NCBI GenBank assembly: GCA_964014485.1
Contig: CAXHAT010000135.1
Span: forward strand, 1 to 22,717
Direction of reading: 5' to 3'
DNA: 22,717 nt
Source of the DNA: an uncultured Deferribacteres bacterium
GTDB lineage: Bacteria > Zhuqueibacterota > Zhuqueibacteria > Zhuqueibacterales > Geothermadaptataceae
The notes under the pieces: model-generated
The model's input: only the letters and a program-made list of their open reading frames with translations
The model's database searches: none
What the model was told of the DNA's origin: nothing
Made by a program: the position numbers and the translations under genes
Shown here: positions 4,489-22,452 of the stretch, in pieces
Position numbering within the stretch: the stretch's first letter is position 1
Layout: each line of letters opens with the position of its first letter

Positions 4489-4725
4489 TCAAAGCCTGTC
4501 AAAATTCTCCGGCTCAACATCCGGGACGGCGTTCATGACTTTCTCAAAATCTTCACGCCTGCCTTTCGCCGCTTCCGCTTTTAGATAATCCTCGGTCAGC
4601 AATGCGGACATTTTTTCCGCCGCGGCGGCCACCAGAAACTGATTGATTGAAATGCCTTCGGATTTCGCCAAATCCTTGATTTTATTGTACAGCGACACAG
4701 GCAATTTTAATGGGAAGTTTATCAT
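4489..4725 (-). CDS. Ribbon-helix-helix (CopG/HicB-type) antitoxin-like protein, 78 aa
   Basis: MINFPLKLPVSLYNKIKDLAKSEGISINQFLVAAAAEK; ATG overlaps the upstream stop (ATGA). Confidence 0.8.
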   Translation of the reverse strand: MINFPLKLPVSLYNKIKDLAKSEGISINQFLVAAAAEKMSALLTEDYLKAEAAKGRREDFEKVMNAVPDVEPENFDRL

Positions 4726-5084
4726 GCGGCAACACGCTTGGGCAGAGGTGGAATTTGGGGCGAAAATGAAAGACCAACCGCCAGAAAATCGCTCACCGGA
4801 GGCGATGTAATCACTGAAATGACCGCTTGCCACAAGCCGTCCGGCAGGTTCCGTAATTCATGGATCGGAATATTCAACGGCGCGTCGCGATGGAATTCCC
4901 GCATTCGGGAAAAATTGATCAAAGTCAGCCCAACCGCCCGCGGCTCCCGATCCGGCGGACTCCCCGCATCCAACCGAAGTAAAAGATTGTCCGCCAACTC
5001 TACGCCCGTGACATGATCGCTCTTGCCAAAGGAGACGTAAAGCACATCGCCTTCCTGATCGTAGTTGAGTTTTGTATCAGTCAT
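4722..5084 (-). CDS. DUF2283-like protein
   Basis: KLNYDQEGDVLYVSF...GVELADNLLLRLD...AVGLTLINFS pattern; ATG at 5084 (TTG at 5096 alternative). Confidence 0.7.
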   Translation of the reverse strand: MTDTKLNYDQEGDVLYVSFGKSDHVTGVELADNLLLRLDAGSPPDREPRAVGLTLINFSRMREFHRDAPLNIPIHELRNLPDGLWQAVISVITSPPVSDFLAVGLSFSPQIPPLPKRVAA

Positions 5085-5252
5085 TTCTTCGTCCAAAACT
5101 TACTGTTTGGCATTTTGTTTCACTGCATACTATTTTTATAAAAATTACGCTCTCGCTGTCAAAAGCACAACTACAAAATAGCCTTGCGTGCTCTTGAGCG
5201 TATTCCACTCCCTAAAATAACCAAATCATTCAAATCACCAAATAGCCGAGCG

Positions 5253-5363
5253 TGATTGTCCTCAGCGAACTGCTCGAACAGAGATGCTGAAGTCGAAGTC
5301 GAAGCGGTAGTTGTCGCAACTGCCGAAGTAGAAACTGGCAACCCACGCCGAAGAAGCAGTTTT
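5253..5363 (-). repeat. DGR variable repeat VR-B
   Basis: Ungapped 111-nt alignment to TR 8116-8226: 18 mismatches at TR adenines, 2 at non-A positions (both T>C). Confidence 0.93.
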
Positions 5364-6494
5364 CTTGTCCGCCGTCCAGATCCAGCGCTGGGTCGCGTCA
5401 AAAACTTCGTCGATAAACAAGCCGTTTTTGCCCTTCTTCGGCGCCATCAAACTCATGCCTTCCTCCAGCGTCGGCAAGCGCCAGTCGTTAAAGCCGCCGA
5501 ATTTCTCAGCATTCAACGAGTCGATATAATCTTGCGCGCTTTTGAACTTCATGTAATCTTTCGAGCCGCTTTGCTGCCAAGTCAGGCCGGTCGCGTGGTC
5601 AAGTATCGAGACCGCGCCGTTTTTGTCGATTTGCTCGAATTGATTCTGAACACCTTCTCCTGAAGCGTTTTTCCTTTTGTCGTAAAATCCTTTTTCTTGC
5701 AACATTTCCTTAACCGCTTTCTCGGACAACGATTCCGCCGGTTTGGAGCGCAACGATACGGGCGGGGATTTCGAGACTGAGGCTTTGGCTGGCGCGTTTC
5801 TTCGCGTTTCGTTTTGCCGGAGACGGGCTTCCAATTCGGTCAGTTGCTTTTCCCGACGCAAAAGTTTGTCGTTCAGCGCTTCTACTTCGCGCACGGCTTT
5901 TTCCGCCCGTGCCGTTTCGCTTTGCCAGCGCTTTTTCAAGGCCTCGTGTTCAGCACGCAAAACGGCCTTGGCAAGGTCGGCGTTTTTTTGCCTGAGTTCG
6001 GCTTGCAGTTTCGCCAATTCTTCCGCCGGAACCGTCTCGCCGCGCAGCCTGGGTTTGAAATCCTGCACTGGATTGCTCGCATCCCGCGACCAGTTCGGGA
6101 AATCGTGCAAGGATTCGGCGATCTCCTTTTCGAGCGCTTTCAGGCCGTCGATGGATTGTTTGTAAATAATGCAGCGGTAATTGCGGATGTCAAACGGCAA
6201 GTCGTTGGCGCTTTGGGCGCACATGATGGTTTTGTTGCCGATGGCGTGCGCCACGCCCATTTCGTAGAACACGTTGGGATTCATGTCGCTGAGCTCGGCC
6301 ACAACCGCATCGGCGCGGAACAGGTGCTGGATGATTTTTTTGTTAATGTTGAAATGCCCCTTCAGTTCATCCACGCGCACCGCCCGAAATCCGGCGGCCT
6401 CGCACGCAGGCGCGACGGCGTACTTGTATACCTCCAATCGCTCCTCGCTGAACGGCATAATCACAAAGCAGATTTTTTGTTTTTCCTGGGTCAT
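5262..6494 (-). CDS. DGR target B: N-terminal nucleoside deoxyribosyltransferase/TIR-like Rossmannoid domain, coiled coil, C-terminal DUF1566 (Lcl/CLec-fold) domain
   Basis: CFVIMPF...ADAVVAELSDMNPNVFYEMGVAHA...LPFDI; heptad-rich aa ~155-232; DHATGLTWQQ, DWRLPTLEE, WIWTAD, VRAVR. Confidence 0.88.
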   Translation of the reverse strand: MTQEKQKICFVIMPFSEERLEVYKYAVAPACEAAGFRAVRVDELKGHFNINKKIIQHLFRADAVVAELSDMNPNVFYEMGVAHAIGNKTIMCAQSANDLPFDIRNYRCIIYKQSIDGLKALEKEIAESLHDFPNWSRDASNPVQDFKPRLRGETVPAEELAKLQAELRQKNADLAKAVLRAEHEALKKRWQSETARAEKAVREVEALNDKLLRREKQLTELEARLRQNETRRNAPAKASVSKSPPVSLRSKPAESLSEKAVKEMLQEKGFYDKRKNASGEGVQNQFEQIDKNGAVSILDHATGLTWQQSGSKDYMKFKSAQDYIDSLNAEKFGGFNDWRLPTLEEGMSLMAPKKGKNGLFIDEVFDATQRWIWTADKKTASSAWVASFYFGSCDNYRFDFDFSISVRAVR

Positions 6495-6614
6495 TTTTTG
6501 GTTTCAGATGCGGATATCGTCAAGAGCCTTTGATCCCCTTAAATGGTGGAAAAGACGTGAGTTTGAACGGGATAAAATCAATGGGCGGAAAAATAGAAAA
6601 CCGGCGCGTCAATG

Positions 6615-8144
6615 TCAAAGCGTTCTACCGTTAAAGCTCTCTTCGTAGCCGTCTATGATCATGTACGGCAAGCGCTCTTTAGCGTACAAGCACTCTCTCC
6701 CCGTTTGTCGAACCGCGAGTACAGGTATTTTGGCGTGCTCGAGTTTTTTCACCATACGCGGCAGCAATTTGGCTGGAAACCCGCACGCATGGCGATAGCC
6801 CCGCCAACCTTTTATAACGTTCACGTCCAGCGCCGGCGCCAATTCCACGGCTTGCTTACCCAAAACTTCATAGTAGTTTCCGATTTGAATCAAACGGGCG
6901 TAGTTGCCATATTTCCATCCCAGCCAGCTTACTTGCCGTTTGAGCGTCGGCTGTTTGCGAAGACCGGCGTCGAATCGTTTCACTTTTTTGTTCGAAATCG
7001 AGAAATAGCGTTGCAGAAAAGCGTGTTTTTGCCAGAGCTTTTGGAGAAGATTGTCGCAATCAGCGTGTTGAAAATGCCCGAGATAAGCATTGATCGCCGC
7101 CGTCAGCGCATCGATTTCCTCGGAATCGAAACGGTACATCGTAAAGCTCCGCCGCAGTTGCACATTCCTGACGCGAAAAATCTTCAGCTTCGTCTTCAGA
7201 TTCCCAACCGTGCGCCGCCGCACCAGGCAATAATTCGGGCGAACGACAAATCCGCCAAAATCGACCCCGCCGGTAACAAGGCCGAGCTTTGTCGCTTTCG
7301 GGTTCAATTTCAATCGGAGTTTTTCAGCGAGAAACCGCCTGATTTCTTCCTGCCACGTTCTCAATTTCACAGCGTCACAATGCAGAAGAACCAGGTCATC
7401 GACATAGCGCAGATAAAAGCGGCATTTAAGATCGTGTTTCACGAACTGATCCAGCGCGTTGAGATAAACATTGGCGAAAAACTGGCTGGTGAGGTTGCCG
7501 ATGGGCAAGCCGCAATCGGGTCTGGCGTGAAACAGTGATTTATGCGGCGGCAAACGAAAACGCAAATTTTCCCGATCCTTCATTTCGTAATCCTGCGTGC
7601 AGTCGTGGAAAATGACGGTTTCGAGCAGCCATCGCAGATCGGGACGGTGATGCTTTTGCGCCAGCATTTCGAACAGGAGGCGCCGGTCGATGGTCATGAA
7701 GAAGTTGCGGATATCGAGTTTGAGGTAAAACGCGCGCTTCCGGCCGCCGTGCGTGACGCGTCGCTGCATTTTTTGTAATTGATCGACCGCCAAATGCGCG
7801 CCTTTTTCCGGGCGGCAGGCAAAGGAATGGAAGATAAAAGTCTTTTCCCAAATCGGAGAGATGTGATTATAGATCAGATGATGCACCACGCGATCTCTGA
7901 AATCCGCCGCGAAAATTTCACGGCATTTGGGCTTTTCCGTGTAGAAACAAATAGAAGCGGACGGCCGGTAACGGCGCTCCAGCAACTCCTCGGTGAGATC
8001 GACCAGGTTTTGCTCCAGATCGACCTCGAACGCCAGTGCGCTCAGCTTGTTGCGTTTGTTCGCGCGGCAATCGCGCCAGGCGCGGTACACTTGCTGAAAA
8101 TTGAAGAAGGGGTGATGATTTTCCTCAGCGAACTGCTCGAACAT
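6615..8144 (-). CDS. DGR reverse transcriptase with C-terminal MutS domain I-like extension (~509 aa)
   Basis: PKCREIFAADFRDRVVHH, KLDIRNFF, GLPIGNLTSQFFAN (DGR-type signature), YLRYVDD, GVDFGGF; likely ATG at 8144 inside the TR 3' end. Confidence 0.95.
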   Translation of the reverse strand: MFEQFAEENHHPFFNFQQVYRAWRDCRANKRNKLSALAFEVDLEQNLVDLTEELLERRYRPSASICFYTEKPKCREIFAADFRDRVVHHLIYNHISPIWEKTFIFHSFACRPEKGAHLAVDQLQKMQRRVTHGGRKRAFYLKLDIRNFFMTIDRRLLFEMLAQKHHRPDLRWLLETVIFHDCTQDYEMKDRENLRFRLPPHKSLFHARPDCGLPIGNLTSQFFANVYLNALDQFVKHDLKCRFYLRYVDDLVLLHCDAVKLRTWQEEIRRFLAEKLRLKLNPKATKLGLVTGGVDFGGFVVRPNYCLVRRRTVGNLKTKLKIFRVRNVQLRRSFTMYRFDSEEIDALTAAINAYLGHFQHADCDNLLQKLWQKHAFLQRYFSISNKKVKRFDAGLRKQPTLKRQVSWLGWKYGNYARLIQIGNYYEVLGKQAVELAPALDVNVIKGWRGYRHACGFPAKLLPRMVKKLEHAKIPVLAVRQTGRECLYAKERLPYMIIDGYEESFNGRTL

Positions 8145-8226
8145 AGTTGTTGTTGTTGTTGTCGATGTGGTTGTTGTTGCAATTGCCATTGTTGAAATTG
8201 ACAACCCACGCCGAAGAAGCAGTTTT
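8116..8226 (-). ncRNA. DGR template repeat (TR)
   Basis: Reads AAA ACT GCT TCT TCG GCG TGG GTT GTC AAT TTC AAC AAT GGC AAT TGC AAC AAC AAC CAC ATC GAC (AAC)5 TAT GTT CGA GCA GTT CGC TGA GGA AAA TCA; 12 AAY codons; lies between avd and RT. Confidence 0.95.
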
Positions 8227-8402
8227 GTCCCGATGCTTGTCGAGCGGCCGGCAGGCGTTTTTCGCCGCCCGCCAACCAGCCTAATTGCGAAGCCTCCACT
8301 TCTCTCGCAAGAGCTCAGGAGGGCGCTGAAACATGCCGTTGCTGCAAAGCTTGTTTGCGACAACGGCGACCGGGATGCACAATCATCGTATGAGCGCGCT
8401 CC

Positions 8403-8789
8403 TCACGCCGGGGGGCCGGTCATGAGCGATTCCGGCTTTTCCTTCTTCATTGCCGTTCCCAGCCATCCTTCATTTTGTCTGATAATTTCAATGACGAGAT
8501 TGACGCTGTGCTGGTAGGAGTTGGCATTCGGGAACGCCTTGAGATCGCGGCAGAGGCGAATCGTCAATTTCAATTCTTCCAGCGTGTTGCGGTTTTGCAA
8601 AAGCAGTAGGGTTTTATCATGCGCGTCATTTGCCTGACGAATGTTTTGCACCACTCGGCGCGAAAGCCGGCGCAAATCCTCGCCGAGACCGTACTTGTGG
8701 TAACGGCCAAAATTGCGCACCAGTTTCTCGAAGTACAGCGTCAGATCGTACGCCTTTTTATAAATGGGCAAATGTTCGTATCTCGCCAT
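8403..8789 (-). CDS. avd: DGR accessory variability determinant (Avd-like four-helix bundle)
   Basis: 128 aa, basic, HLPIYKKAYDL...F.RYHKYGLGEDLR...LEELKLTIRL...EI.RQ..GW; adjacent to TR and RT. Confidence 0.88.
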   Translation of the reverse strand: MARYEHLPIYKKAYDLTLYFEKLVRNFGRYHKYGLGEDLRRLSRRVVQNIRQANDAHDKTLLLLQNRNTLEELKLTIRLCRDLKAFPNANSYQHSVNLVIEIIRQNEGWLGTAMKKEKPESLMTGPPA

Positions 8790-8832
8790 AATTTAAATGA
8801 CCAAATAATTCAAATCGCCAAATAACCGAGCG

Positions 8833-8946
8833 TGATTGTCCTCAGCGAACTGCTCGAACAAAGACGTTGAAGACGTTGCTGACGACGTGGAAGTAGCTGC
8901 AAAAGCCACTGCTGAAAAGGACAACCCACGCCGAAGAAGCAGAGTA
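8833..8946 (-). repeat. DGR variable repeat VR-A
   Basis: Aligns to TR with one extra NNC codon; 22-24 mismatches depending on gap placement, all at TR adenines. Confidence 0.93.
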
Positions 8947-10638
8947 TTTATCCGCCGTCCATATCCAGCGCTGTTGAGCGCTGAAAATTTCATCAATAAA
9001 AAGACCGCCTGCGTTCTCTTTGGGCTCCATCAAGGACATCGCTTCTTCCAGCGTCGGCAGGCGCCAATCCCTGAATCCGGCGAATTGGATTTGATTGAGC
9101 GAGTCAATATACGCTTGCGCCTGAGCGTATGCCAAGCTCGTTGAGCCGCTTTGCTGCCAAGTCAGGCCGGTCGCCTCGTCTTGTACGATTTTGGCGCCGG
9201 AAATTTCGCGCGCAGTGAATCGATTGTCCAGGCCTTTGCCATTTGGATTATAACCGCGATCGTAAAAGCCGCGGCGTTTGATCATGGCTTCGGCTTCGGT
9301 GCGCGAGAGAAACGATGGTTTTAACCTGCTCAGATTCGTGCGCATCGCAAGCGAATCGCGTTGTTTTGCAGCGTCCAGGTCGAGCGGCAGGGGTAGCGCG
9401 TCTTCGGGCGGGTCTGTTTGCGCGGTTGCGGGGGGCTGCGGCGTCTCTTGCGGTGCGGCGCTGGCTTTATTGCTGGTATAAATCTCGCCGTCCTTCCCGG
9501 ATTGCGCCACCTGGAAGGTCGCGGGCGGTTCGCCGGGTTTGCGCGGCATGTCGTAACTGTTGACGCCGATCGCGACCAGCGGCTCTTCCCGGTTTTTATA
9601 GATCATCGTCACCGGATTGTCCGAAGCCAATTCCGGCGGCGGCCCCGTCCATTCCAGGCGTTCGATATTGTCACCAATCAAGGTTGCTTTCAAGTGAATG
9701 AGCGGTTCGCCGTCCAGGGCGTCGACGGACGGCGGCGGTTTGGGGTAAAATCGGAAGGTAAAGCGCTGGCGCTGCAAGTCTTCCGGCAGGCGCAGCATTT
9801 CCAGTTCGGCAATGTTGCCGGCGCCAAAGCGGTTGCGTCCCGGCGCCATGAACTGGGCGTAGCTTTTGACGTCGTAGTAAAAATTTCCCGCCCCGTCTTT
9901 CACGCGAAAGGCAAAAAAGTCCTCGCTAAAACGCGGATCCTCCGGCTTGATTTTCGGCAGATTGGCAATGCGCGCTTCAAATTCGAAAAAGGTGACGCCG
10001 GTTTCCTGATCGGTCACTCTCCGTGCAGGCAGGGGCAAATGTACGGGCTCGCCGTCGAGATTGAAAACGACGTCCACGGCAAGAGTATCGGCGGGAATTT
10101 GTGACGGACTGGCGGCTTTTCCCTTCAAAATGCGTTGGTCAGGCTCGCCTTCCACTGGTGAAACTTCGCCTTGCACAAGCGGAATTCTGGTGTCGAACTC
10201 AACCGTCAAGGTGTCGCTGAAGTTGCCGTCGAACCCGACCACAACTTTGTGCAGGCCGTCGGTGAGTTTTTGCGGGGTGAGAAATTCGGGATCGAGGGTG
10301 AAACGCCATAGCCAGGTTTCTTCGTCCAGTCTGGTCGGCGTTACGGGATCGAGCAGGCGTACGCCGTCGAATTCGAGTGAGAGCGGCTTGTTTTTGCGCG
10401 CGGCGTTGTTCAGGCACACCACCTGCAAGCCGGAATCGGGGCGTGTAATCGGCTTCAAAAGCGCAAAACGCGGCGGGTCTTCCGGGGCGGGCTTTTGGCA
10501 GATAAAAGGCAACACGCCTACCGCCAGGGCAGCCAGCGCGGGAATCGCGATTTTCCACCATTCAAGGCGATGTTTTTGGCGCTTATGCGCCGTTTCCTCT
10601 GGCGCTGGGCGCTTGTTTTTGGGTTTTCTTCGACTCAC
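8842..10638 (-). CDS. DGR target A: N-terminal membrane anchor, beta-rich middle region, Pro-rich linker, C-terminal DUF1566/CLec domain
   Basis: Basic N-terminus then WWKIAIPALAALAVGVLPFIC; DEATGLTWQQ, DWRLPTLEEAMSL, WIWTAD, VRAVR; GTG start. Confidence 0.85.
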   Translation of the reverse strand: MSRRKPKNKRPAPEETAHKRQKHRLEWWKIAIPALAALAVGVLPFICQKPAPEDPPRFALLKPITRPDSGLQVVCLNNAARKNKPLSLEFDGVRLLDPVTPTRLDEETWLWRFTLDPEFLTPQKLTDGLHKVVVGFDGNFSDTLTVEFDTRIPLVQGEVSPVEGEPDQRILKGKAASPSQIPADTLAVDVVFNLDGEPVHLPLPARRVTDQETGVTFFEFEARIANLPKIKPEDPRFSEDFFAFRVKDGAGNFYYDVKSYAQFMAPGRNRFGAGNIAELEMLRLPEDLQRQRFTFRFYPKPPPSVDALDGEPLIHLKATLIGDNIERLEWTGPPPELASDNPVTMIYKNREEPLVAIGVNSYDMPRKPGEPPATFQVAQSGKDGEIYTSNKASAAPQETPQPPATAQTDPPEDALPLPLDLDAAKQRDSLAMRTNLSRLKPSFLSRTEAEAMIKRRGFYDRGYNPNGKGLDNRFTAREISGAKIVQDEATGLTWQQSGSTSLAYAQAQAYIDSLNQIQFAGFRDWRLPTLEEAMSLMEPKENAGGLFIDEIFSAQQRWIWTADKYSASSAWVVLFSSGFCSYFHVVSNVFNVFVRAVR

Positions 10639-10644
10639 GTCATT

Positions 10645-10721
10645 CAGTATCCAGTGAGCAGTGAGCAGTGAGCAGTGAGCAGTGAGCAGTGAGCAGTATT
10701 CAGTTCACAGTTCACAGTTTA
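10645..10721. repeat. Heptamer tandem array (CAGTNNN)x11 including (CAGTGAG)x6
   Basis: cagtatc, cagtgag x6 (10652-10693), cagtatt, cagttca x2, cagttta. Confidence 0.92.
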
Positions 10722-12004: not shown

Positions 12005-12322
12005 TTACTCGTCATTGACGTCATGAATATTATTGGCGTTTTGGGCTTGTCTGAATCTTGAAACCGTCTCCATCGCTGCATCATCAAGAAACTCAGCCCC
12101 ACAATTCGTACAGGAAAATCTCTCCAAATTCGGCAAAATCGCACCATCATTGAGTTTGCATGGACCGCCAGTTCGCATCATTGTTTTTTCACCACATTCC
12201 GGGCACGTTAGTATGGACGGTAGATCTTGCCACCATGCATCGGCGGAAGACGACACTTCCCTAGGCTTGGTCCGTTGTGCACTTTTTTTATTCTGTAGAG
12301 CGCTTTGAGGAAATAATGACAT
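12005..12322 (-). CDS. YgiT/MqsA-type zinc-finger protein (antitoxin-like)
   Basis: CPECG...CTNCGAEFLDDAAM; overlaps the upstream toxin-like gene. Confidence 0.7.
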   Translation of the reverse strand: MSLFPQSALQNKKSAQRTKPREVSSSADAWWQDLPSILTCPECGEKTMMRTGGPCKLNDGAILPNLERFSCTNCGAEFLDDAAMETVSRFRQAQNANNIHDVNDE

Positions 12323-12596
12323 AGAAAACCTCTTGATTCATTTCTTTTTGAATCTTCCCTTTCGTATACACAGCCAGACCGTCGAAGGTCAAACCCTTGA
12401 TAACATAAAGCGTTTCTCGTTTATTTGTTTTAGGGTTTCGTGATCGAAGTTTTTTGAAAATCGACGGTGCGTTCAGAAGCGCTTCGTATACCATTTCTTT
12501 GGTTAAATGGTCAGCGGTCATTTCATTTTCGGCTTTCAAAGTAAAGACAACGCGGCGAGCGATTATAAGTCGTTTTATCCGTATAAATACATCCAT
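12288..12596 (-). CDS. DUF4258/RelE-MqsR-like putative toxin
   Basis: 102 aa basic; VVFTLKAENEM..D.LT...V.EALL...LYVIKG...YVIISSK; paired with zinc-finger gene. Confidence 0.6.
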   Translation of the reverse strand: MDVFIRIKRLIIARRVVFTLKAENEMTADHLTKEMVYEALLNAPSIFKKLRSRNPKTNKRETLYVIKGLTFDGLAVYTKGKIQKEMNQEVFYVIISSKRSTE

Positions 12597-12972
12597 TTCA
12601 CATGAGCTACGAATCGAAACAAAGCCAAACGTTCAAAACCCTTGCAACTAAAATAGTCGAGCGTCGGCAAAAACACAAGCAAACAAAAAAAGCGAAATCT
12701 CAACGACCTGAACCAACATGCAGCATTCCGGCAGTTTACGCCGCTACATTCACGGATCATTGCTCAATCTCATCGGGCAACAAGAATCGAGGCTAGTTTT
12801 GCACAAGGTCAGGAACTTCGTCGCGCCAAAAATGTATGACGGACGAACCGCTTTCCATTGCAACAATTACCCGCCGCCTTGACGATAAGTGTTTGCTCTG
12901 TTGATGGAATATTCTTTATATTCAGCGCCGTTCTTCTCAAGTAATCCCGGTATAAACGAACAACGCAGGTTC

Positions 12973-15900
12973 ATGCAATTTATGCGACCTATTTATTTCC
13001 TCGTTATCGCGCTTTTGCTCACGCTCTTTTGCAGCGATCTTTTTTCGCAAAAATCCGCCGTTTTACACACGGCGACCAGCGCTTCAAACCTGCGCCTTCA
13101 GCTCAAATTTAATTCTCCTGAGCTCGACACCCTTCTCATCGACAACCGCGCCTTTGTCTGCCCGAACCTCGTTTCAGAAAACGGACTTTATTTTCATCAG
13201 ATTGACGGCCTCCCGGTCGCCGGGACGGCGCTGGCCTTGCCGCACGCGAGTCAAAATCCGCGTCTCACCATCACCAATGAAAACTGGGAAAATATTCAGA
13301 CCTCGCTGCCGCTTGCTCCGCCTGCGCAAATTCAGCCGGACGGTGAGTTGACGTATTTTTCTTACCAGGCGCAAACAAGTGATCAAGCCGCGCCAAGTCC
13401 CGCGGTTTCTTTAGACCGCACCGCATGGTTCCGCAATCTCAAAGTCGCTCATCTGACCATTTCTCCGACCCGCCTGCAAAATAATCAACTCCAATATTTA
13501 AGGAGCGCCGAGGTCATTCTGCAATGGGAAAATACGGCGTCCGGAGCTTCGATTCAAAGCTTCGATGCAGGTCGTGAATTTAATGCCGGGCAAGACGATT
13601 TTGACTACGCACAATCCGTCTTGAATAAAAGCGACGCCACCCGATTTCTCAAGCCGCGCGCAAAACCGGCGGCCAAATCTGCAAATTTCGCCAACCGCGA
13701 TTTTTTGTTGGTTCAAGTGACGGAAAACGGCTGGTATCAAATTACCGGCGCGGACTTGACGGCGCAAAATATCAGTCTCTCGGGCTTGCAGTCCGACCAA
13801 ATTCGGATGTACAACAACGGCGGGCGCACGCTGCCGGAAAAGCCGTCTGATACACGGCCTGAAACGTTGATCGAAATTCCGATTTTGGTGAACGACGGCG
13901 GCGACGGCAGTTTCGATCCTGATGATACAATTCAGTTCTTCGGCGCGAGCGTGCATGATTGGGAATACTCGCAAACCGAGGCCAGATGGCGGCGTTTTAA
14001 CAATCCCTATACCAACGAGAACGTTTATTGGCTTTCCTGGGATGCTCAGGAAAGTGCGGCAAAACGATTGGCGGAAATTTCCATCGCGGCAAATGCCGGT
14101 CAGGCAAAAAGTGCGGGGTTGAATCTGCAAAAAATCGAGACCGACATTGTCAATCCCATCAATTCAGGTCGTGATTGGTACGGTCGCGAATTATCGCTCT
14201 CCGACGCCACGGCGAACTACTCTTTTAACCGAACTGCCGGGCAAGCGCTGCAAAACGGACGCATCTATTTACGTGTGGTTTCCAAGACCAGCGGCAGGCA
14301 TACCGTTTCTCTTGGCTGGAATCAAAACTCACTTAACACCTATAGTTTTTTCGGCTCGACCGGCGGCGATTACTTGGACATGAACGGCCAGACCTACACC
14401 GCCAATGTTCCCAACACACTCATTCAAGCCGAAAATACGCTGACCTTAAATTACAGCAATACGCTGCAAACCGGTTCGCTTTTTGTCGATTGGGTGGAGT
14501 TTATTGCGGAAGACGATTTGGCGGTTCAGGACGGTGAATTGACGTTTGCCGCTGCGCCAAGCTCCGGGATCGAAACTTGGCGAGTTACCGGAGCAGGTTC
14601 GGACGCCCGTATTTTTGAAATCTCAAATCCCGTTGCGCCGCGAACGCTCGCATTCACCCAACAAGGCGAGACGCTGATTTTTGCAGATTCGATGAACACA
14701 GCCACGCCTAAAAGGTATTTCATTGCTGATGTGCCGAAAGCGCCCGCGGCATTCGAGCGTTACACCACTTCAGACATTCGCGGCTCGTCAAACACAGCCG
14801 ATATGCTCGTGGTCACGCACAGCGATTTTCTGGACGAGGCCAATCGCTTTGCCGAGCACAAACGCTCAGTTCGCAATTTTGAAGTCGCTGTTGTTGACGT
14901 GAACGTTGTGATGAAGGAATTTGGCTGGGGGCTGATGGACCCGACCGCGATACGTGACTTTGTCGCCTATGCGTTTCACAATTGGCAAAAGCAGCCGCAG
15001 TATCTCGTGCTTTTCGGGGACGGCGTTTATGATTATCGCGGCATTGGGCGCGGCATAAACCAAAACTTTGTGCCGACATTTCAAACGACAGAGCTTGAAG
15101 AACTGGTCAATCGCAACCTTGAAGCCTACTACACTTACGTCAACGGCGACGATCGCGACATGGATTTGTCGATGGGTCGTATCCCGGCGCAAACGATTGA
15201 TGAGGCGCGAAATTTTGTCGACAAACTCATCGAATATGAAACGAAACCGGAATTCGGCTTTTGGCGCACGATTCTGACGATGGTCGCAGATGACGAACTC
15301 GTCACCGGCGGGCGGGACAACGGCGAAGTCATCCATACTAAGGACGCCGAAATTATCGCTGAACGACACACGCCGGATTACCTGAATCTTAGCAAAATTT
15401 ACCTGACCGAATACGAAGGCGTGCGCACAGCTTCGGTTTCCGGGGTTCGCAAGCCGCAAGCTCAACAAGCGCTGATCGACCGCATTAACAGCGGCACCCT
15501 GGTCTTGAATTATGTCGGGCACGGCAATTCAACGCAGTGGGCGCACGAAGTCGTTTTTGAGTTGGCGCAGGATTTCCCTTCGTTGCAAAATGATCGTAAG
15601 TACCCGTTCATCGTCGCAGCGACTTGCGATTTTGGCCGTTACGATAAATTGAATTCGCAGAGTTTTCCTGAAGAATTGCTTTTTGCGCGCGGTAAAGGGG
15701 CGGTTGGCTTGTTCACTTCGAGCCGCGTTGTTTACGCCCAACCAAACGCAACATTTAACAAAGCCTATTACGATATATTGTTCACAGAATCGCCGGGAAG
15801 TATTTCTATTGGCGAAGCGTTGATTTTGGCAAGGATGCAAACTCCGGCGGGATTTGTCGTCAACGATGAAAAATTCACCATTCTCGGCGATCCGTCTCTA

Positions 15901-16962
15901 AGGCTTGCAATCCCGACAAGCTCGGCGCAAATCATCTCCGTTTCTCCCGATACGCTTTTCGCGTTGAACAAAACCAATATCATCGGCACGGTGCAAAGTT
16001 TTAGTGAAGTGCCCATCAGCGCCGGCGAAGTTGAGCTTGTCGTTTTCGACGACAAGAAGCGGGTCAGATATTTAACTTCGCGCAATTCGCCGATTGATTA
16101 CATCCTCCCCGGCAATCTCATTTTTCGCGGCAAGGGCGCTTTGCAAGGCGAGCTGTTCGACATGAATTTCATCGTGCCGAAAGACGTGACCTACGGCGGC
16201 AGAACGGCCAGGATGAGCGTTTACGGCGTGGGCGACAATTGGGAAGCTCTGGGCTATCGTGAATCGATTCCGATCAGCCTGCGCTCCGGCGTGCTTTTTG
16301 ACGAAGAGGGCCCGGAAATTACGGTGAGTTTTTCAGATCGCGAGTTTTTCGCCAGCGGCGATCCGATCACCCGGACCTCGTCAATTATTGCGACCATCGC
16401 CGATTCCGTTTCCGGCGTGAATCTCACCGGTGAAATCGGCCACAAGATCACCTTGACCATCGACGGCGACACAGAAAATCGACTTGATCTAACACAGAAC
16501 TTCGTTTATTTCGAGAACGATTTTTTGAGCGGGCAACTCACGGCGCAGCTTCCCAAAAACCTCGCGCCGGGTTTGCACTTGGCGGAATTGAAAGCATGGG
16601 ACAACTCCAACAACTCATCGCGAAAGCAATTCGAGTTCATTCTGACGGAAGACGGCGAACTGACGCTTTCAGACGTGCTCAACTACCCCAACCCGTTTCA
16701 GGAAAGCACCGCTTTTACGTTTATTCTTAACGCCGACGCCGAAGTCAAAATTTCGGTTTACACAGTTGCGGGACGTTTGATTCAAACGCTGGAAAACATT
16801 GCCGCGACGCCCGGATTCAATCAAGTCCCTTGGGACGGCCTCGACGCGGACGGCGATGAATTGGCGAACGGCGTTTATCTCTATCGCATCGTAGCCAAAA
16901 GCGTTGTAGACGGCGAAGACGTTGTCATTGAGCAAATCGAGAAGCTGGCGATTCAGCGATAA
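12973..16962 (+). CDS. porU: C25 (gingipain-family) peptidase, PorU-like type IX secretion sortase with C-terminal sorting/FlgD-like domain
   Basis: Signal peptide; V..NGWYQITG, DPTAIRDF, YLVLFGDG.YD, GRIP, NYVGHG and ATCDFG (His/Cys dyad), LGDP, KAWDNSNN, NYPNPF, NGVYLYRI; start chosen at ATG 12973. Confidence 0.82.
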   Translation: MQFMRPIYFLVIALLLTLFCSDLFSQKSAVLHTATSASNLRLQLKFNSPELDTLLIDNRAFVCPNLVSENGLYFHQIDGLPVAGTALALPHASQNPRLTITNENWENIQTSLPLAPPAQIQPDGELTYFSYQAQTSDQAAPSPAVSLDRTAWFRNLKVAHLTISPTRLQNNQLQYLRSAEVILQWENTASGASIQSFDAGREFNAGQDDFDYAQSVLNKSDATRFLKPRAKPAAKSANFANRDFLLVQVTENGWYQITGADLTAQNISLSGLQSDQIRMYNNGGRTLPEKPSDTRPETLIEIPILVNDGGDGSFDPDDTIQFFGASVHDWEYSQTEARWRRFNNPYTNENVYWLSWDAQESAAKRLAEISIAANAGQAKSAGLNLQKIETDIVNPINSGRDWYGRELSLSDATANYSFNRTAGQALQNGRIYLRVVSKTSGRHTVSLGWNQNSLNTYSFFGSTGGDYLDMNGQTYTANVPNTLIQAENTLTLNYSNTLQTGSLFVDWVEFIAEDDLAVQDGELTFAAAPSSGIETWRVTGAGSDARIFEISNPVAPRTLAFTQQGETLIFADSMNTATPKRYFIADVPKAPAAFERYTTSDIRGSSNTADMLVVTHSDFLDEANRFAEHKRSVRNFEVAVVDVNVVMKEFGWGLMDPTAIRDFVAYAFHNWQKQPQYLVLFGDGVYDYRGIGRGINQNFVPTFQTTELEELVNRNLEAYYTYVNGDDRDMDLSMGRIPAQTIDEARNFVDKLIEYETKPEFGFWRTILTMVADDELVTGGRDNGEVIHTKDAEIIAERHTPDYLNLSKIYLTEYEGVRTASVSGVRKPQAQQALIDRINSGTLVLNYVGHGNSTQWAHEVVFELAQDFPSLQNDRKYPFIVAATCDFGRYDKLNSQSFPEELLFARGKGAVGLFTSSRVVYAQPNATFNKAYYDILFTESPGSISIGEALILARMQTPAGFVVNDEKFTILGDPSLRLAIPTSSAQIISVSPDTLFALNKTNIIGTVQSFSEVPISAGEVELVVFDDKKRVRYLTSRNSPIDYILPGNLIFRGKGALQGELFDMNFIVPKDVTYGGRTARMSVYGVGDNWEALGYRESIPISLRSGVLFDEEGPEITVSFSDREFFASGDPITRTSSIIATIADSVSGVNLTGEIGHKITLTIDGDTENRLDLTQNFVYFENDFLSGQLTAQLPKNLAPGLHLAELKAWDNSNNSSRKQFEFILTEDGELTLSDVLNYPNPFQESTAFTFILNADAEVKISVYTVAGRLIQTLENIAATPGFNQVPWDGLDADGDELANGVYLYRIVAKSVVDGEDVVIEQIEKLAIQR

Positions 16963-21482: not shown

Positions 21483-21513
21483 AAAGAACCAAATAAATCA
21501 AATTGCCAAATGA

Positions 21514-21603
21514 TCAAGATTGTCCGGAACGAACAGCGCGGACGTAGTTGCCGTCGCCGACATGATCGTTGTCGCAACCACCGTAGTTGAAAAGGACAAC
21601 CCA
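21514..21603 (-). repeat. VR-like region of target C (diverged relative to the local TR)
   Basis: TGG GTT GTC CTT TTC AAC TAC GGT GGT TGC GAC AAC GAT CAT GTC GGC GAC GGC AAC TAC GTC CGC GCT GTT CGT TCC GGA CAA; A-site changes plus 8 non-A changes and two fewer codons. Confidence 0.7.
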
Positions 21604-22452
21604 GACGTCCGACGCGCTCTCTTTATCTGCCGTCCAGATCCAGCGCTGCTTTTTGTCAAACGCCGGATCGATATAGAGATCGCCGTTTTTCTCTTCACAC
21701 TCCATTAATGACATCGCTTCTTCCAGCGTCGGTAATCGCCAATCGTCAAATCCGGTGAATTCAACACGGTTAAGGCGCTCAACATAATTTTCGGCGCTGT
21801 TGTAATCAGGCCTATCATCAGAACCTGATTGCTGCCACATCAATCCGCCGGCATGATCAACCACCAGTTTTTCGCCCTGCCTTTCGACCAATTCGAAATC
21901 GTTTGCGAAGCCCTTGCCGTTTTTTTTCTTAAATTTATCGAAAAAATCGTTTTCGACGAGCATCTGCTTCACATCATTATCTGAAAGCTCGTGGCCTGCT
22001 GCTCTGAATCGCGGTCGGCGCGGCAGCGGTTTGGCGAGCGGCGCGATTTGCTGTTTCGGCGTTTCGAGCGGTTCTACATGCAGCGCCGTCAACAATTGTC
22101 GCAGGCTGTTATCGAAATCGTGGAATTGAATGTACAAGCGACTGCTCAGAAGCGCCGGGCGGGGTGCGTCGTCCAAAAGGCAGGGGATAATTTGTTTTTG
22201 CAGCGAGTGGGCGCAAGTCCATTCTTCCTGCACCCAGTGCGAGGCTTTGGCTTTTTTTGACCAGAGCAGGAGCAATGTATCGCACCATTCCAGCGCGTCG
22301 TTAATGCGCTTGGGCAGATTGTCGCCGGCGCGGGTCTGGTTTTGGTCAATCCAGACTTCCAGCCCTGCGGCTTTCAGTTCGCGTTCCAAACGCCGCACAA
22401 CGGCCTTGTCTTCCCAGGCGTGGCTAATAAAAATGCGCGGTTTCTGCGCCAT
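21514..22452 (-). CDS. TIR domain + DUF1566/CLec protein (putative remote DGR target C)
   Basis: RIFISHAWED, VWID, LLLLWS, S.WVQEEW (TIR_2 with putative catalytic Glu), IIPCLLD; DHAGGLMWQQ, DWRLPTLEEAMSL, WIWTAD, YVRAVR. Confidence 0.9.
   Translation of the reverse strand: MAQKPRIFISHAWEDKAVVRRLERELKAAGLEVWIDQNQTRAGDNLPKRINDALEWCDTLLLLWSKKAKASHWVQEEWTCAHSLQKQIIPCLLDDAPRPALLSSRLYIQFHDFDNSLRQLLTALHVEPLETPKQQIAPLAKPLPRRPRFRAAGHELSDNDVKQMLVENDFFDKFKKKNGKGFANDFELVERQGEKLVVDHAGGLMWQQSGSDDRPDYNSAENYVERLNRVEFTGFDDWRLPTLEEAMSLMECEEKNGDLYIDPAFDKKQRWIWTADKESASDVWVVLFNYGGCDNDHVGDGNYVRAVRSGQS

Follow-up and report, generated by a model that had tools for sequence, protein, structure and literature searches.

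Positions 5253..10638 of the window (the whole 22,717-nt stretch of DNA analysed here, from an uncultured Deferribacteres bacterium) carry what, judged by its sequence, is a complete and intact-looking chromosomal DGR, a description that does not imply activity. The best explanation of the locus as a whole is an intact DGR with two diversified targets that would be receptors of a sensor type, and we give this reading a probability of about 0.72. Read along the minus strand, which carries every part, the order is target 1 (598 aa), avd, TR, RT and target 2 (410 aa; Table 1). Target 1, Avd, the TR, the RT/MutS-domain-I-like fusion and target 2 would together make up one operon-like block. The original prediction had described a complete, multi-target DGR with its parts in this order on one strand. 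The ORFs and their coordinates confirm the order. The set of parts is complete: alongside Avd and a TR there is an RT whose closest match is bRT, and each flanking target has a VR, at the 3' end of its Lcl_C/DUF1566 domain, that pairs with the one TR.

Table 1. Features of the DGR cassette and of the third Lcl_C gene in the window
Feature	Position	Strand	Description
Target 1	10638..8842	-	598 aa; K/R-rich N-tail, one TM segment, ectodomain, C-terminal Lcl_C aa 484-598
VR of target 1 (VR598), including 3' IMH-like invariant block	8946..8833	-	114 nt
GACAATC + phased ATTTGR x3, directly 3' of target 1 VR	8801..8840	-	
avd accessory gene	8789..8403	-	128 aa; PHROG 3206 'Avd protein of DGR' E 1.8e-18
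TR core	8226..8116	-	111 nt, 40 A, 12 AAY codons
DGR RT	8144..6615	-	509 aa; RT core aa ~17-323; RVT_1 match
RT C-terminal MutS-domain-I-like extension	6615-7154	-	aa 331-509
Target 2	6494..5262	-	410 aa; predicted N-terminal NDT/TIR-fold aa 1-150, coiled coil aa ~150-235, Lcl_C aa 297-410
VR of target 2 (VR410), including IMH-like block	5363..5253	-	111 nt
GACAATC + phased ATTTGR x3, directly 3' of target 2 VR	5221..5260	-	
Third Lcl_C protein	22452..21514	-	312 aa; TIR_2 E 3e-29 + Lcl_C E 8e-20
VR of TIR_2-Lcl_C gene	21619..21517	-	matches TR2 of contig C74
ATTTGR element of TIR_2-Lcl_C gene	21489-21524	-	

The same arrangement recurs elsewhere. A cassette of the form 'Lcl_C target - avd - long RT - Lcl_C target', with both flanking targets present, was found in 7/9 further loci examined, and in these recurring cassettes the downstream target is a TIR-Lcl_C protein in three cases and an NDT-like-Lcl_C protein (71% identical) in one. 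An Rfam scan of the window returned no family at gathering score. A heptamer repeat upstream of target 1 was considered as a DGR-specific switch, but the genome has 50 such perfect arrays and the idea was dropped.

Comparison of the TR with the two VRs

VR410 aligns with the TR without gaps and shows 20 mismatches, 18 at TR adenines and two T>C changes; 19/20 sit at codon positions 1 and 2. VR598 has 22 mismatches, every one at a TR adenine (22/22), and one extra codon, a 3-nt in-frame insertion within an (AAC)n run; if the template had one more AAC, the count would become 24/24. With A at 40/111 TR positions, the hypergeometric P for this bias is 5e-8 for VR410 and 1e-12 for VR598. Formal TR/VR alignment thus returned the very figures that had been predicted (22-24 mismatches, all at A, in one VR, and 18 at A plus two others in the second), and counting gave the 12 AAY codons that had been claimed for the TR.

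Each VR runs to the stop codon that closes an Lcl_C (PF07603) domain, and the last 29 nt of the TR overlap the start of the RT gene. A 21-nt block is identical among TR, VR410 and VR598. The base that follows is C in both VRs and A in the TR (8121); five bases further on the TR flank diverges, and the two VR flanks are ~90% alike over 81 nt. The mismatch at 8121 is better read as a fixed IMH/IMH* difference than as a product of mutagenesis.

Compared with each other, VR598 and VR410 differ at 24-26/32 adenine sites and at only 2/71 non-A sites. The two tips therefore share a scaffold, not a surface, and the proposal that the same hypervariable binding surface is displayed on both sides of the membrane does not stand. 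Such divergence is what separate retrohoming events on one scaffold should produce. On the model of BPP-1, RT/Avd would reverse-transcribe the TR RNA with misincorporation opposite adenines, and the cDNA would then overwrite the VR with which each target gene ends, replacement beginning at the IMH block. If homing events are mutually independent, the two proteins would draw their tips from a single sequence space (12 AAY codons, 32 mutable A) and would therefore carry different tips at any moment.

Proteins encoded by the cassette

The RT has Bordetella bRT as its best PDB sequence match (8ub7, E 6e-39 over aa 17-323), with further matches to PADLOC RT PDLC01136 (E 5e-42) and PHROG 1423 (E 5e-109). 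Its translation shows YVDD and IGNLTSQ, the latter an instance of IGxxxSQ, the DGR-typical RT signature. A search of the genome contigs for close relatives of this RT by peptide patterns gave a single weak match only. The Avd protein scores under the curated cut-offs, with 43 bits for NCBIfam DivGenRetAVD (E 4e-11; cut-off 80) and 38.8 bits for Pfam bAvd (cut-off 40).

Beyond its core the RT carries a C-terminal extension. Searched alone, this region scores 22.2 bits for MutS_I (PF01624) against a gathering score of 20.6, and 12/15 clade members match the same family. The AF2 model (pLDDT 87.3) was compared by Foldseek, and all of the matches listed are MutS/MSH proteins or entries titled mismatch-repair protein. 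As modelled, the RT C-terminus is a MutS-domain-I fold. One alignment contains a Y-Y-E run in which Y94 is nearly invariant and E96 invariant, and which may be the equivalent of the F-x-E (aromatic-X-Glu) mismatch motif of MutS. In the mechanism that we propose, this module probably acts on the mismatch-rich cDNA:VR heteroduplex. An RT with such a built-in module bears on how a mismatch-dense heteroduplex escapes host mismatch repair; in Bacteroides, host MutS is described as cutting retrohoming 5-10 fold (Macadangdang 2024, bioRxiv 10.1101/2024.11.15.621889).

The two targets have similar tips (Pfam Lcl_C, E 6.2e-21 for target 1 and 2e-19 for target 2) on very different bodies. The sole hydrophobic segment of target 1 is N-terminal (aa 30-48, hydropathy maximum 2.13), and in the N-tail K/R outnumber D/E by 10 to 3. 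Judged only by hydropathy and the positive-inside rule, target 1 would sit in the membrane in a type-II-like manner, and its Lcl_C tip would lie outside the cytoplasm. Pfam and structural-neighbour searches found no effector domain in it. Its ectodomain has weak Ig-like structural neighbours in the Atlas (TM 0.28-0.37), which we treat as a lead only. Target 2 has no hydrophobic segment (hydropathy maximum 0.79), so that the predicted pairing of a membrane-anchored with a cytoplasmic target agrees with the hydropathy of both proteins.

What does target 2 carry in place of a membrane anchor? Its N-domain matches Pfam Nuc_deoxyrib_tr (PF05014) at a sub-threshold E of 7e-4, aligned over aa 44-98, and PADLOC 'Effector TIR' PDLC00733 at E 9.8e-12. 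The AF2 model (pLDDT 92.6) has as its top Foldseek matches a nucleoside 2'-deoxyribosyltransferase (E 5.5e-6, TM 0.61), SPARTA TIR-APAZ and TIR-STING. When a profile of the target 2 family was run against PDB sequences, coiled-coil noise dominated, and NDT and DNPH1 appeared only at E 0.4-0.9. Target 2 is thus modelled as a cytoplasmic effector-sensor fusion in which a nucleoside-deoxyribosyltransferase/TIR-fold domain, for which support at the sequence level is weak, is followed by a coiled coil and an Lcl_C (DUF1566) tip. E78, which is invariant in 50 sequences and falls within the stretch that Pfam aligns to PF05014, is the putative catalytic Glu of the N-domain. Among the 120 homologues listed, a hand count found this domain fused to Lcl_C in 76, to FGE-sulfatase in 6, to SIR2_2 in 3 and to TIR_2 in 2.

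Further DGRs of the genome and the repeat element after the VRs

The genome holds two more DGRs besides the cassette described above. The TR of the second (TR2, on contig C74) has four matching VRs, one of which lies inside the window and is targeted in trans. This VR, in the TIR_2-Lcl_C gene, aligns with TR2 without gaps and has 14 mismatches at A and 2 at non-A positions, both of these at the IMH end. The TR of the present cassette (TR1) was ruled out as the template of this gene (21514-22452), as it leaves 17 non-A mismatches and 6 gap columns; TR2 fits instead. The genome encodes 13 Lcl_C paralogs in all, fused to TIR, NACHT (NACHT+NNH1), nSTAND-like, CHAT or membrane segments, and TIR-superfamily domains occur in target 2 and 4 further Lcl_C paralogs. 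For the other seven paralogs no TR was found in the assembly.

The least-described feature of the locus is the phased ATTTGR element that follows the VRs. Across the genome (8.4 Mb) the pattern has 8 matches, all at the 3' ends of Lcl_C genes and nowhere else. The element follows 16/16 targets in 8 related loci, and the VRs of the third DGR, which is unrelated, have no such element behind them. It is kept by three Lcl_C paralogs (two on contig C34, one on C5) that have no TR match in the assembly; orphaning therefore happens in this genome. TRF reports a period-17 repeat at 8788-8825, overlapping the element of target 1. DNA folds of the 96 nt past the three VRs of the window, made in search of a hairpin or cruciform, were no better than those of shuffled sequences (z -0.62, +0.46, +0.83), and a terminator scan gave no enrichment (10 found vs 11.5 expected). 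A hairpin of the BPP-1 type is given for only 34% of DGRs in the survey of Wu 2018 (PMC5758913).

In the proposed mechanism the phased element probably marks acceptor sites. Throughout the RT-MutS_I / Lcl_C DGR clade, such sites may be marked by GGACAATC followed by three to four ATTTGR, 8-9 nt apart, instead of a GC hairpin, and a bent-DNA or protein-binding signal is a possible role for the GGACAATC/ATTTGR pattern. A specific element after acceptor VRs could explain target choice in DGRs that have no BPP-1-type hairpin. Taken together, the ATTTGR-marked acceptors and the fused mismatch-binding module might allow each of two paralogous DGRs to supply its own repertoire to a family of minimal 'effector-coiled coil-hypervariable tip' receptors, including a previously unnamed NDT-like effector class. 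This combined reading is tentative, and we doubt it more than we trust it; if true, it would describe a compact, NTPase-free form of hypermutating innate immune receptor.

Relation to known DGRs and rival readings

High novelty does not hold up against the literature. Multi-target cassettes, cytoplasmic and periplasmic targets in one locus, TIR-fused targets, trans-acting templates and MutS-like features are all in print (Wu 2018, PMC5758913; Doré 2024, PMC10907252). The present DGR resembles the Thiohalocapsa PB-PSB1 and other 'clade 5' cellular DGRs as these are portrayed in Doré 2024 (PMC10907252): they are chromosomal, with several per genome; two-CLec-target cassettes are possible and distant targets receive their variation in trans; TIR, CHAT, NACHT or nSTAND domains are the fusion partners of the targets; and a cytoplasmic and a periplasmic target can occur in one locus. 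It departs from them in its Lcl_C/DUF1566-type tips, in an RT with a MutS_I module and in one effector that is predicted to be an NDT-like member of the TIR superfamily. In contrast to the sensor architectures depicted there, both targets of the present cassette are without an NTPase.

The variable domain points to a second set of relatives, since DUF1566 belongs to the CLec2 class as defined in Wu 2018 (PMC5758913). Legionella pneumophila LdtA and the 'Architecture D' DGRs of that survey share a DUF1566/CLec2-class variable domain with our locus, as well as an Avd alongside a MutS-like function and three-base indels adjoining AAC repeats. In 'Architecture D', however, MSL is a separate small gene, whereas here it is fused to the RT C-terminus, an arrangement that the survey reports for only three RTs; and LdtA is a lipoprotein of the cell surface (PMC5758913), while target 2 of our locus is predicted to be cytoplasmic with an effector domain. 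Bacteroides Msl DGRs likewise have a MutS-like accessory function, but their Msl stands alone as a protein of its own, and the targets described for them are adhesins at pilus tips (bioRxiv 10.1101/2024.11.15.621889). Cyanobacterial DGRs, as presented in Vallota-Eastman 2020 (PMC7517822), also have dispersed CLec paralogs and remote targets recognised via TR homology at the 3' end, and their targets are mostly cytosolic, some with TIR-like domains as here; they differ in host phylum and in that a kinase is the commonest N-domain, and a MutS_I fusion goes unmentioned in the passages on which we draw.

Bordetella phage BPP-1 (mtd-avd-TR-brt) shares the order target-avd-TR-RT, A-to-N mutagenesis, the IMH/IMH* logic and a homologous RT. 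The BPP-1 element sits in a phage, diversifies one target only and has a GC-rich hairpin behind its IMH; the present DGR is chromosomal, with two local targets, a phased AT-rich repeat without a convincing hairpin, and a TR whose 3' end overlaps the RT start. From an uncultured lineage that has been little studied, it would add a clean and complete case to the emerging picture of cellular DGRs as hypermutators of the sensor tips of immune-type proteins. The receptor that we propose, minimal in having just two modules (an NDT/TIR-fold effector and a variable lectin tip), would be simpler than the published NTPase-containing sensors.

What might the targets do? Once bound to a ligand, the tip would trigger clustering or activation of the N-glycosidase-type effector of target 2. 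We give about even odds that the function is a hypervariable sensor repertoire of a conflict or immune system, which fits the 13 Lcl_C paralogs and their fusion partners, served by at least two such DGRs; targets with TIR, CHAT or NACHT domains are put forward as antigen sensors in Doré 2024 (PMC10907252). The same DGR could instead diversify binders for adhesion, nutrient or signal capture, as has been proposed for Legionella LdtA and for cyanobacterial regulatory variable proteins. Target 1, which has nothing beyond its membrane anchor, its tip and a stalk that may be Ig-like, has the build of a typical surface binder. Surface proteins are frequent among the DUF1566 targets covered in Wu 2018 (PMC5758913), and Vallota-Eastman 2020 (PMC7517822) presents cyanobacterial multidomain targets as regulatory. 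We nevertheless consider this alternative unlikely, if worth keeping in view, as the TIR-superfamily domains of target 2 and four paralogs, and the NACHT, nSTAND-like and CHAT domains of others, are hallmark conflict-system modules.

The cassette could also be a recently silenced or slow relic, intact in sequence with VRs that are now frozen. Either the two T>C differences of VR410 or the indel of VR598 could mean time since the last homing, the paralogs on C34 and C5 show that orphaning happens in this genome, and the protein collection holds no natural VR variants (both targets and the RT are each the sole member of a 90% cluster). On the other hand, all ORFs of the cassette are open, the RT motifs are present and the IMH block is identical in both VRs; among the DGRs catalogued in Wu 2018 (PMC5758913), non-A differences are found in 23% and indels in 7%, and are ascribed there to the RT itself. 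We regard a relic as improbable.

It is very improbable that the DGR belongs to a prophage or some other mobile island and not to the chromosome of the host itself. In favour of such an island, small toxin-antitoxin-like gene pairs lie on either side of the block (4489-5096; 12005-12596), the contig spans only 22.7 kb and the N-domain of target 2 matches phage families of unknown function (phrog_3634, E 1.5e-32). Against it, among the 22 ORFs scanned on the contig, some of which match families of unknown function, none matches a PHROG annotated as virion structure, integrase or terminase, no tRNA was found on the contig, and GC ranges from 0.43 to 0.58 with no step at the DGR block. Housekeeping genes lie 1.2 kb from the block, with ftsEX, pdxA and similar genes as neighbours, which together with the PHROG scan upholds the earlier view of a locus lacking phage and integrase genes in a housekeeping setting. 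As a guide to taxonomy PdxA is uninformative, its matches comprising 80 loci at 39-55% identity scattered over many phyla. Within the order, genomes of a sister family conserve the cassette as well.

Layout and repeats of the cassette

The window cassette (DGR1) is real, complete and well preserved. All of its parts lie on the minus strand of the window, which makes up the whole of contig C135 in an 8.4-Mb assembly (465 contigs, 97% complete), and ORF and repeat mapping agree with the order originally predicted, target, avd, template repeat (TR1), RT, target. The spacing between successive parts is 52, 176 and 120 nt; TR1 and the RT overlap, with the start codon of the RT 29 nt inside the repeat.

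Features of the window, in forward-strand coordinates
Feature	Position	Strand	Basis or remark
Target 1, 598-aa ORF	10638..8842	-	ORF
avd, 128-aa ORF	8789..8403	-	ORF, Avd profile matches
TR1, 111-nt repeat	8226..8116	-	Repeat finding and alignment
RT, 509-aa ORF, ATG at 8144	8144..6615	-	ORF
RT extension, aa 331-509	6615-7154	-	179 residues
Target 2, 410-aa ORF	6494..5262	-	ORF
VR598, variable region of target 1	8833-8946	-	Paired with TR1
Extra VR598 codon	8860-8880	-	Inside VR598
VR410, variable region of target 2	5253-5363	-	Paired with TR1
TIR_2-Lcl_C gene, 312 aa	21514-22452	-	Tip matches TR2, not TR1
GACAATC + ATTTGR x3	5221-5260, 8801-8840, 21489-21524	-	Directly after each window VR

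Repeat finding and alignment paired TR1 (KTASSAWVVNFNNGNCNNNHIDNNNNNYVRAVR; 40 A in 111 nt, 12 AAY codons) with a variable region (VR) in each target. By formal count VR410 differs from TR1 at 20 positions (18 at template adenines and 2 T>C; 19 of the 20 at codon positions 1 or 2), and VR598 at 22, all at template adenines (hypergeometric P for the A bias 5e-8 and 1e-12, respectively). VR598 also carries a 3-nt in-frame insertion within an (AAC)n run; with one more AAC assumed in the template, its count would be 24 of 24 at A. As this count matches the earlier figures (22-24 mismatches, all at A; 18 at A plus 2 others; 12 AAY codons), those figures were correct. The extra codon is consistent with RT slippage, 3-nt indels beside AAC being among those reported in DGRs (Wu 2018, PMC5758913).

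The 21 nt past the last mutated codon are the same in TR1, VR598 and VR410; beyond them both VRs read GGACAATC, compared to GGAAAATC in TR1. The TR1 flank departs 5 bases further on, while the two VR flanks are ~90% alike for 81 nt. This block and its VR/TR base difference follow the logic of IMH and IMH* (an invariant block at the VR end and its non-identical counterpart at the TR end). VR598 and VR410 differ at 24-26 of 32 mutable adenine sites and at 2 of 71 other sites, and so were apparently written independently. The original prediction of the same hypervariable surface on both sides of the membrane therefore has to be restated, with scaffold and sequence space in common and tips that are unlike. 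DGR1 may be active at present.

Receptors and reverse transcriptase

Both targets carry an Lcl_C domain (PF07603, DUF1566; E 6e-21 and 2e-19), and the VRs form the domain ends; DGR targets of this kind are the 'CLec2' class of Wu 2018 (PMC5758913). Target 1 has just one hydrophobic segment, at aa 30-48 (mean hydropathy 2.13), and the tail ahead of it has 10 K/R compared to 3 D/E. Because this tail is K/R-rich, hydropathy and the positive-inside rule predict that everything beyond the segment, tip included, is outside the cytoplasm. The target 1 ectodomain matched no family, and its Atlas model had weakly similar Ig-like neighbours (TM 0.28-0.37). A hydropathy scan found no hydrophobic segment in target 2. 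The predicted topology is thus that of one membrane-anchored and one cytoplasmic receptor, as had been proposed.

Residues 1-150 of target 2 form a widespread, unnamed domain. Counted by hand from the table of 120 homologues listed, its partners were Lcl_C (76), FGE-sulfatase-type lectin domains (6), SIR2_2 (3) and TIR_2 (2). Its AlphaFold model (50 sequences, pLDDT 92.6) matched nucleoside 2'-deoxyribosyltransferases, the TIR domain of SPARTA TIR-APAZ, and TIR-STING (E 5e-6 to 1e-4, TM ~0.6). It also matched PADLOC 'Effector TIR' (E 9.8e-12) and, below cut-off, Pfam Nuc_deoxyrib_tr. Glu78, invariant in the 50-sequence alignment, is a candidate catalytic residue, and a coiled coil lies between this domain and the tip. 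The DGR1 targets may act as immune sensors. Residues 1-220 of target 2 match phage families of unknown function (phrog_3634, E 1.5e-32; phrog_10872; phrog_26406).

The best match of the RT among solved structures was Bordetella bRT (8ub7, E 6e-39, aa 17-323), and its translation contains IGNLTSQ and YVDD. The 128-aa ORF matched PHROG 3206 (E 1.8e-18) and, just under cut-offs, NCBIfam DivGenRetAVD and Pfam bAvd, which identifies it as Avd.

The RT extends past its bRT-like core. Alone, the extension scored 22.2 bits against Pfam MutS_I (gathering score 20.6), and 12 of the 15 sequences in its alignment matched this family (best 6.7e-9). Its model (pLDDT 87.3) predicts a fold like MutS domain I; among the Foldseek matches listed, all were MutS/MSH or entries titled mismatch-repair protein. 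A conserved Tyr-Tyr-Glu sits at what we take to be the position of the MutS mismatch-binding motif. The module could act on mismatch-rich heteroduplex. Three RT extensions with weak MutS_I similarity have been described, and 16 of 372 DGRs have MSL, a separate MutS-like accessory gene (Wu 2018, PMC5758913). Bacteroides DGRs carry Msl, and deletion of host mutS there raised retrohoming 5-10 fold (Macadangdang et al. 2024, 10.1101/2024.11.15.621889). Given these precedents, the RT-MutS_I fusion is a confirmed case of a variant already known but rare.

Related cassettes, paralogs and a shared 3' element

The genome encodes 13 Lcl_C proteins (tblastn). Their N-terminal parts are TIR_2 (4), NDT-like (1), NNH1+NACHT+LRR (1), CHAT (1), nSTAND-like P-loops (2, sub-threshold) and membrane segments or unassigned regions (4). 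A second cassette (DGR2, contig C74) has the same order and RT extension as DGR1, with a 56% identical RT. Its template, TR2, matches four VRs, two on C74, one on C30 and one in the window, each with 14-21 mismatches at adenines and 2-3 elsewhere. The window match is the TIR_2-Lcl_C gene, with 14 A-site and 2 non-A differences, the latter both falling at the IMH end, at which the TR2 sequence is GGATAATC. By this alignment it is evidently a trans target of DGR2, 11 kb from DGR1. The gene was missing from the original prediction.

A third, unrelated DGR (C94, 24817-28356) has a short RT, a TR downstream of the RT and FGE-sulfatase-type tips; its three VRs, on C94 and C428 (1921-2045), show 13-16 A-site differences each. 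For 7 of the 13 Lcl_C proteins no TR was matched in the assembly. Three Lcl_C genes on C34 (22599-26193) and C5 (5634-6782), two TIR-fused and one target-1-like, had no TR match there; either they are orphans or their template was left unassembled.

Directly 3' of the IMH in both DGR1 VRs, GACAATC is followed by three ATTTGR at 8-9-nt spacing. The element also occurs at all four DGR2 VRs and at the three C34 and C5 genes, and motifs like it stand after each of the 16 targets at eight related loci. The pattern has 8 matches in the 8.4-Mb genome, all 8 at Lcl_C 3' ends, a count that informs specificity only, because the pattern was built from these very sites. No element was found in TR1, TR2 or the VR flanks of the third DGR, and no convincing hairpin 3' of the window VRs; GC-rich inverted repeats occur in just 34% of DGRs (Wu 2018, PMC5758913). 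We met no description of the element in the DGR literature compared here, though one may exist elsewhere.

RT matches at E <= 1e-30 were found in 46 of 167 genomes of the phylum, a tally that takes in the unpublished G158 and G162, neither used elsewhere. The long RT has full-length matches in 11 other genomes (48-57% identity). Nine further loci were examined (the C74 locus and eight from other genomes): in seven, avd-RT is flanked by Lcl_C targets on both sides, and in three the downstream target is TIR-Lcl_C. In G155 it is an NDT-like-Lcl_C orthologue, 71% identical, beside a target 1 homologue.

Every headline feature of DGR1 has been described before. Two-target cassettes, which make up 13% of DGRs in Wu 2018 (PMC5758913), are common to that set and DGR1, as are the AAC-adjacent indels. 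With the DGRs of Doré 2024 (PMC10907252) this genome shares remote targets in trans, several DGRs in one genome, fusion of targets to TIR, CHAT or NACHT domains, and a locus that combines a cytoplasmic with a periplasmic target. TIR-like variable proteins also occur in cyanobacteria (Vallota-Eastman et al. 2020, PMC7517822).

Genomic setting

The absence of phage and integrase genes and the housekeeping neighbours claimed originally held up: none of the 22 ORFs scanned matched a PHROG annotated as structural, terminase or integrase, and the neighbours are ftsE/ftsX, a glyoxalase-family gene, a methyltransferase, pdxA and a C25 peptidase. That the DGR1 block lies within a mobile island is an unlikely reading, kept because two toxin-antitoxin-like pairs flank it and the contig is short (22.7 kb), although, besides the PHROG result, no tRNA and no GC step were found on it. 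Of these small overlapping gene pairs, at 4489-5096 and 12005-12596 (-), one joins a DUF2283 protein to an Arc-like protein, and the other has a small ORF beside a YgiT-type zinc-finger protein.

The C25 (gingipain-type) peptidase (1357 aa, 12889-16962, +) has a FlgD-Ig domain and, below threshold, a T9SS sorting tail, consistent with an FCB-group host. The 87-nt gap ahead of target 1 consists mostly of perfect heptamer tandem repeats (10652-10697, CAGTGAG x6.6; 10701-10719, CAGTTCA x2.7); the genome has 50 perfect heptamer arrays with 4 or more copies, of which several have similar units and many lie at contig ends. A dispersed-repeat copy of ~200 nt (1334-1534) is 73% identical to C60 8035-8235, and many other contigs are among the matches listed.
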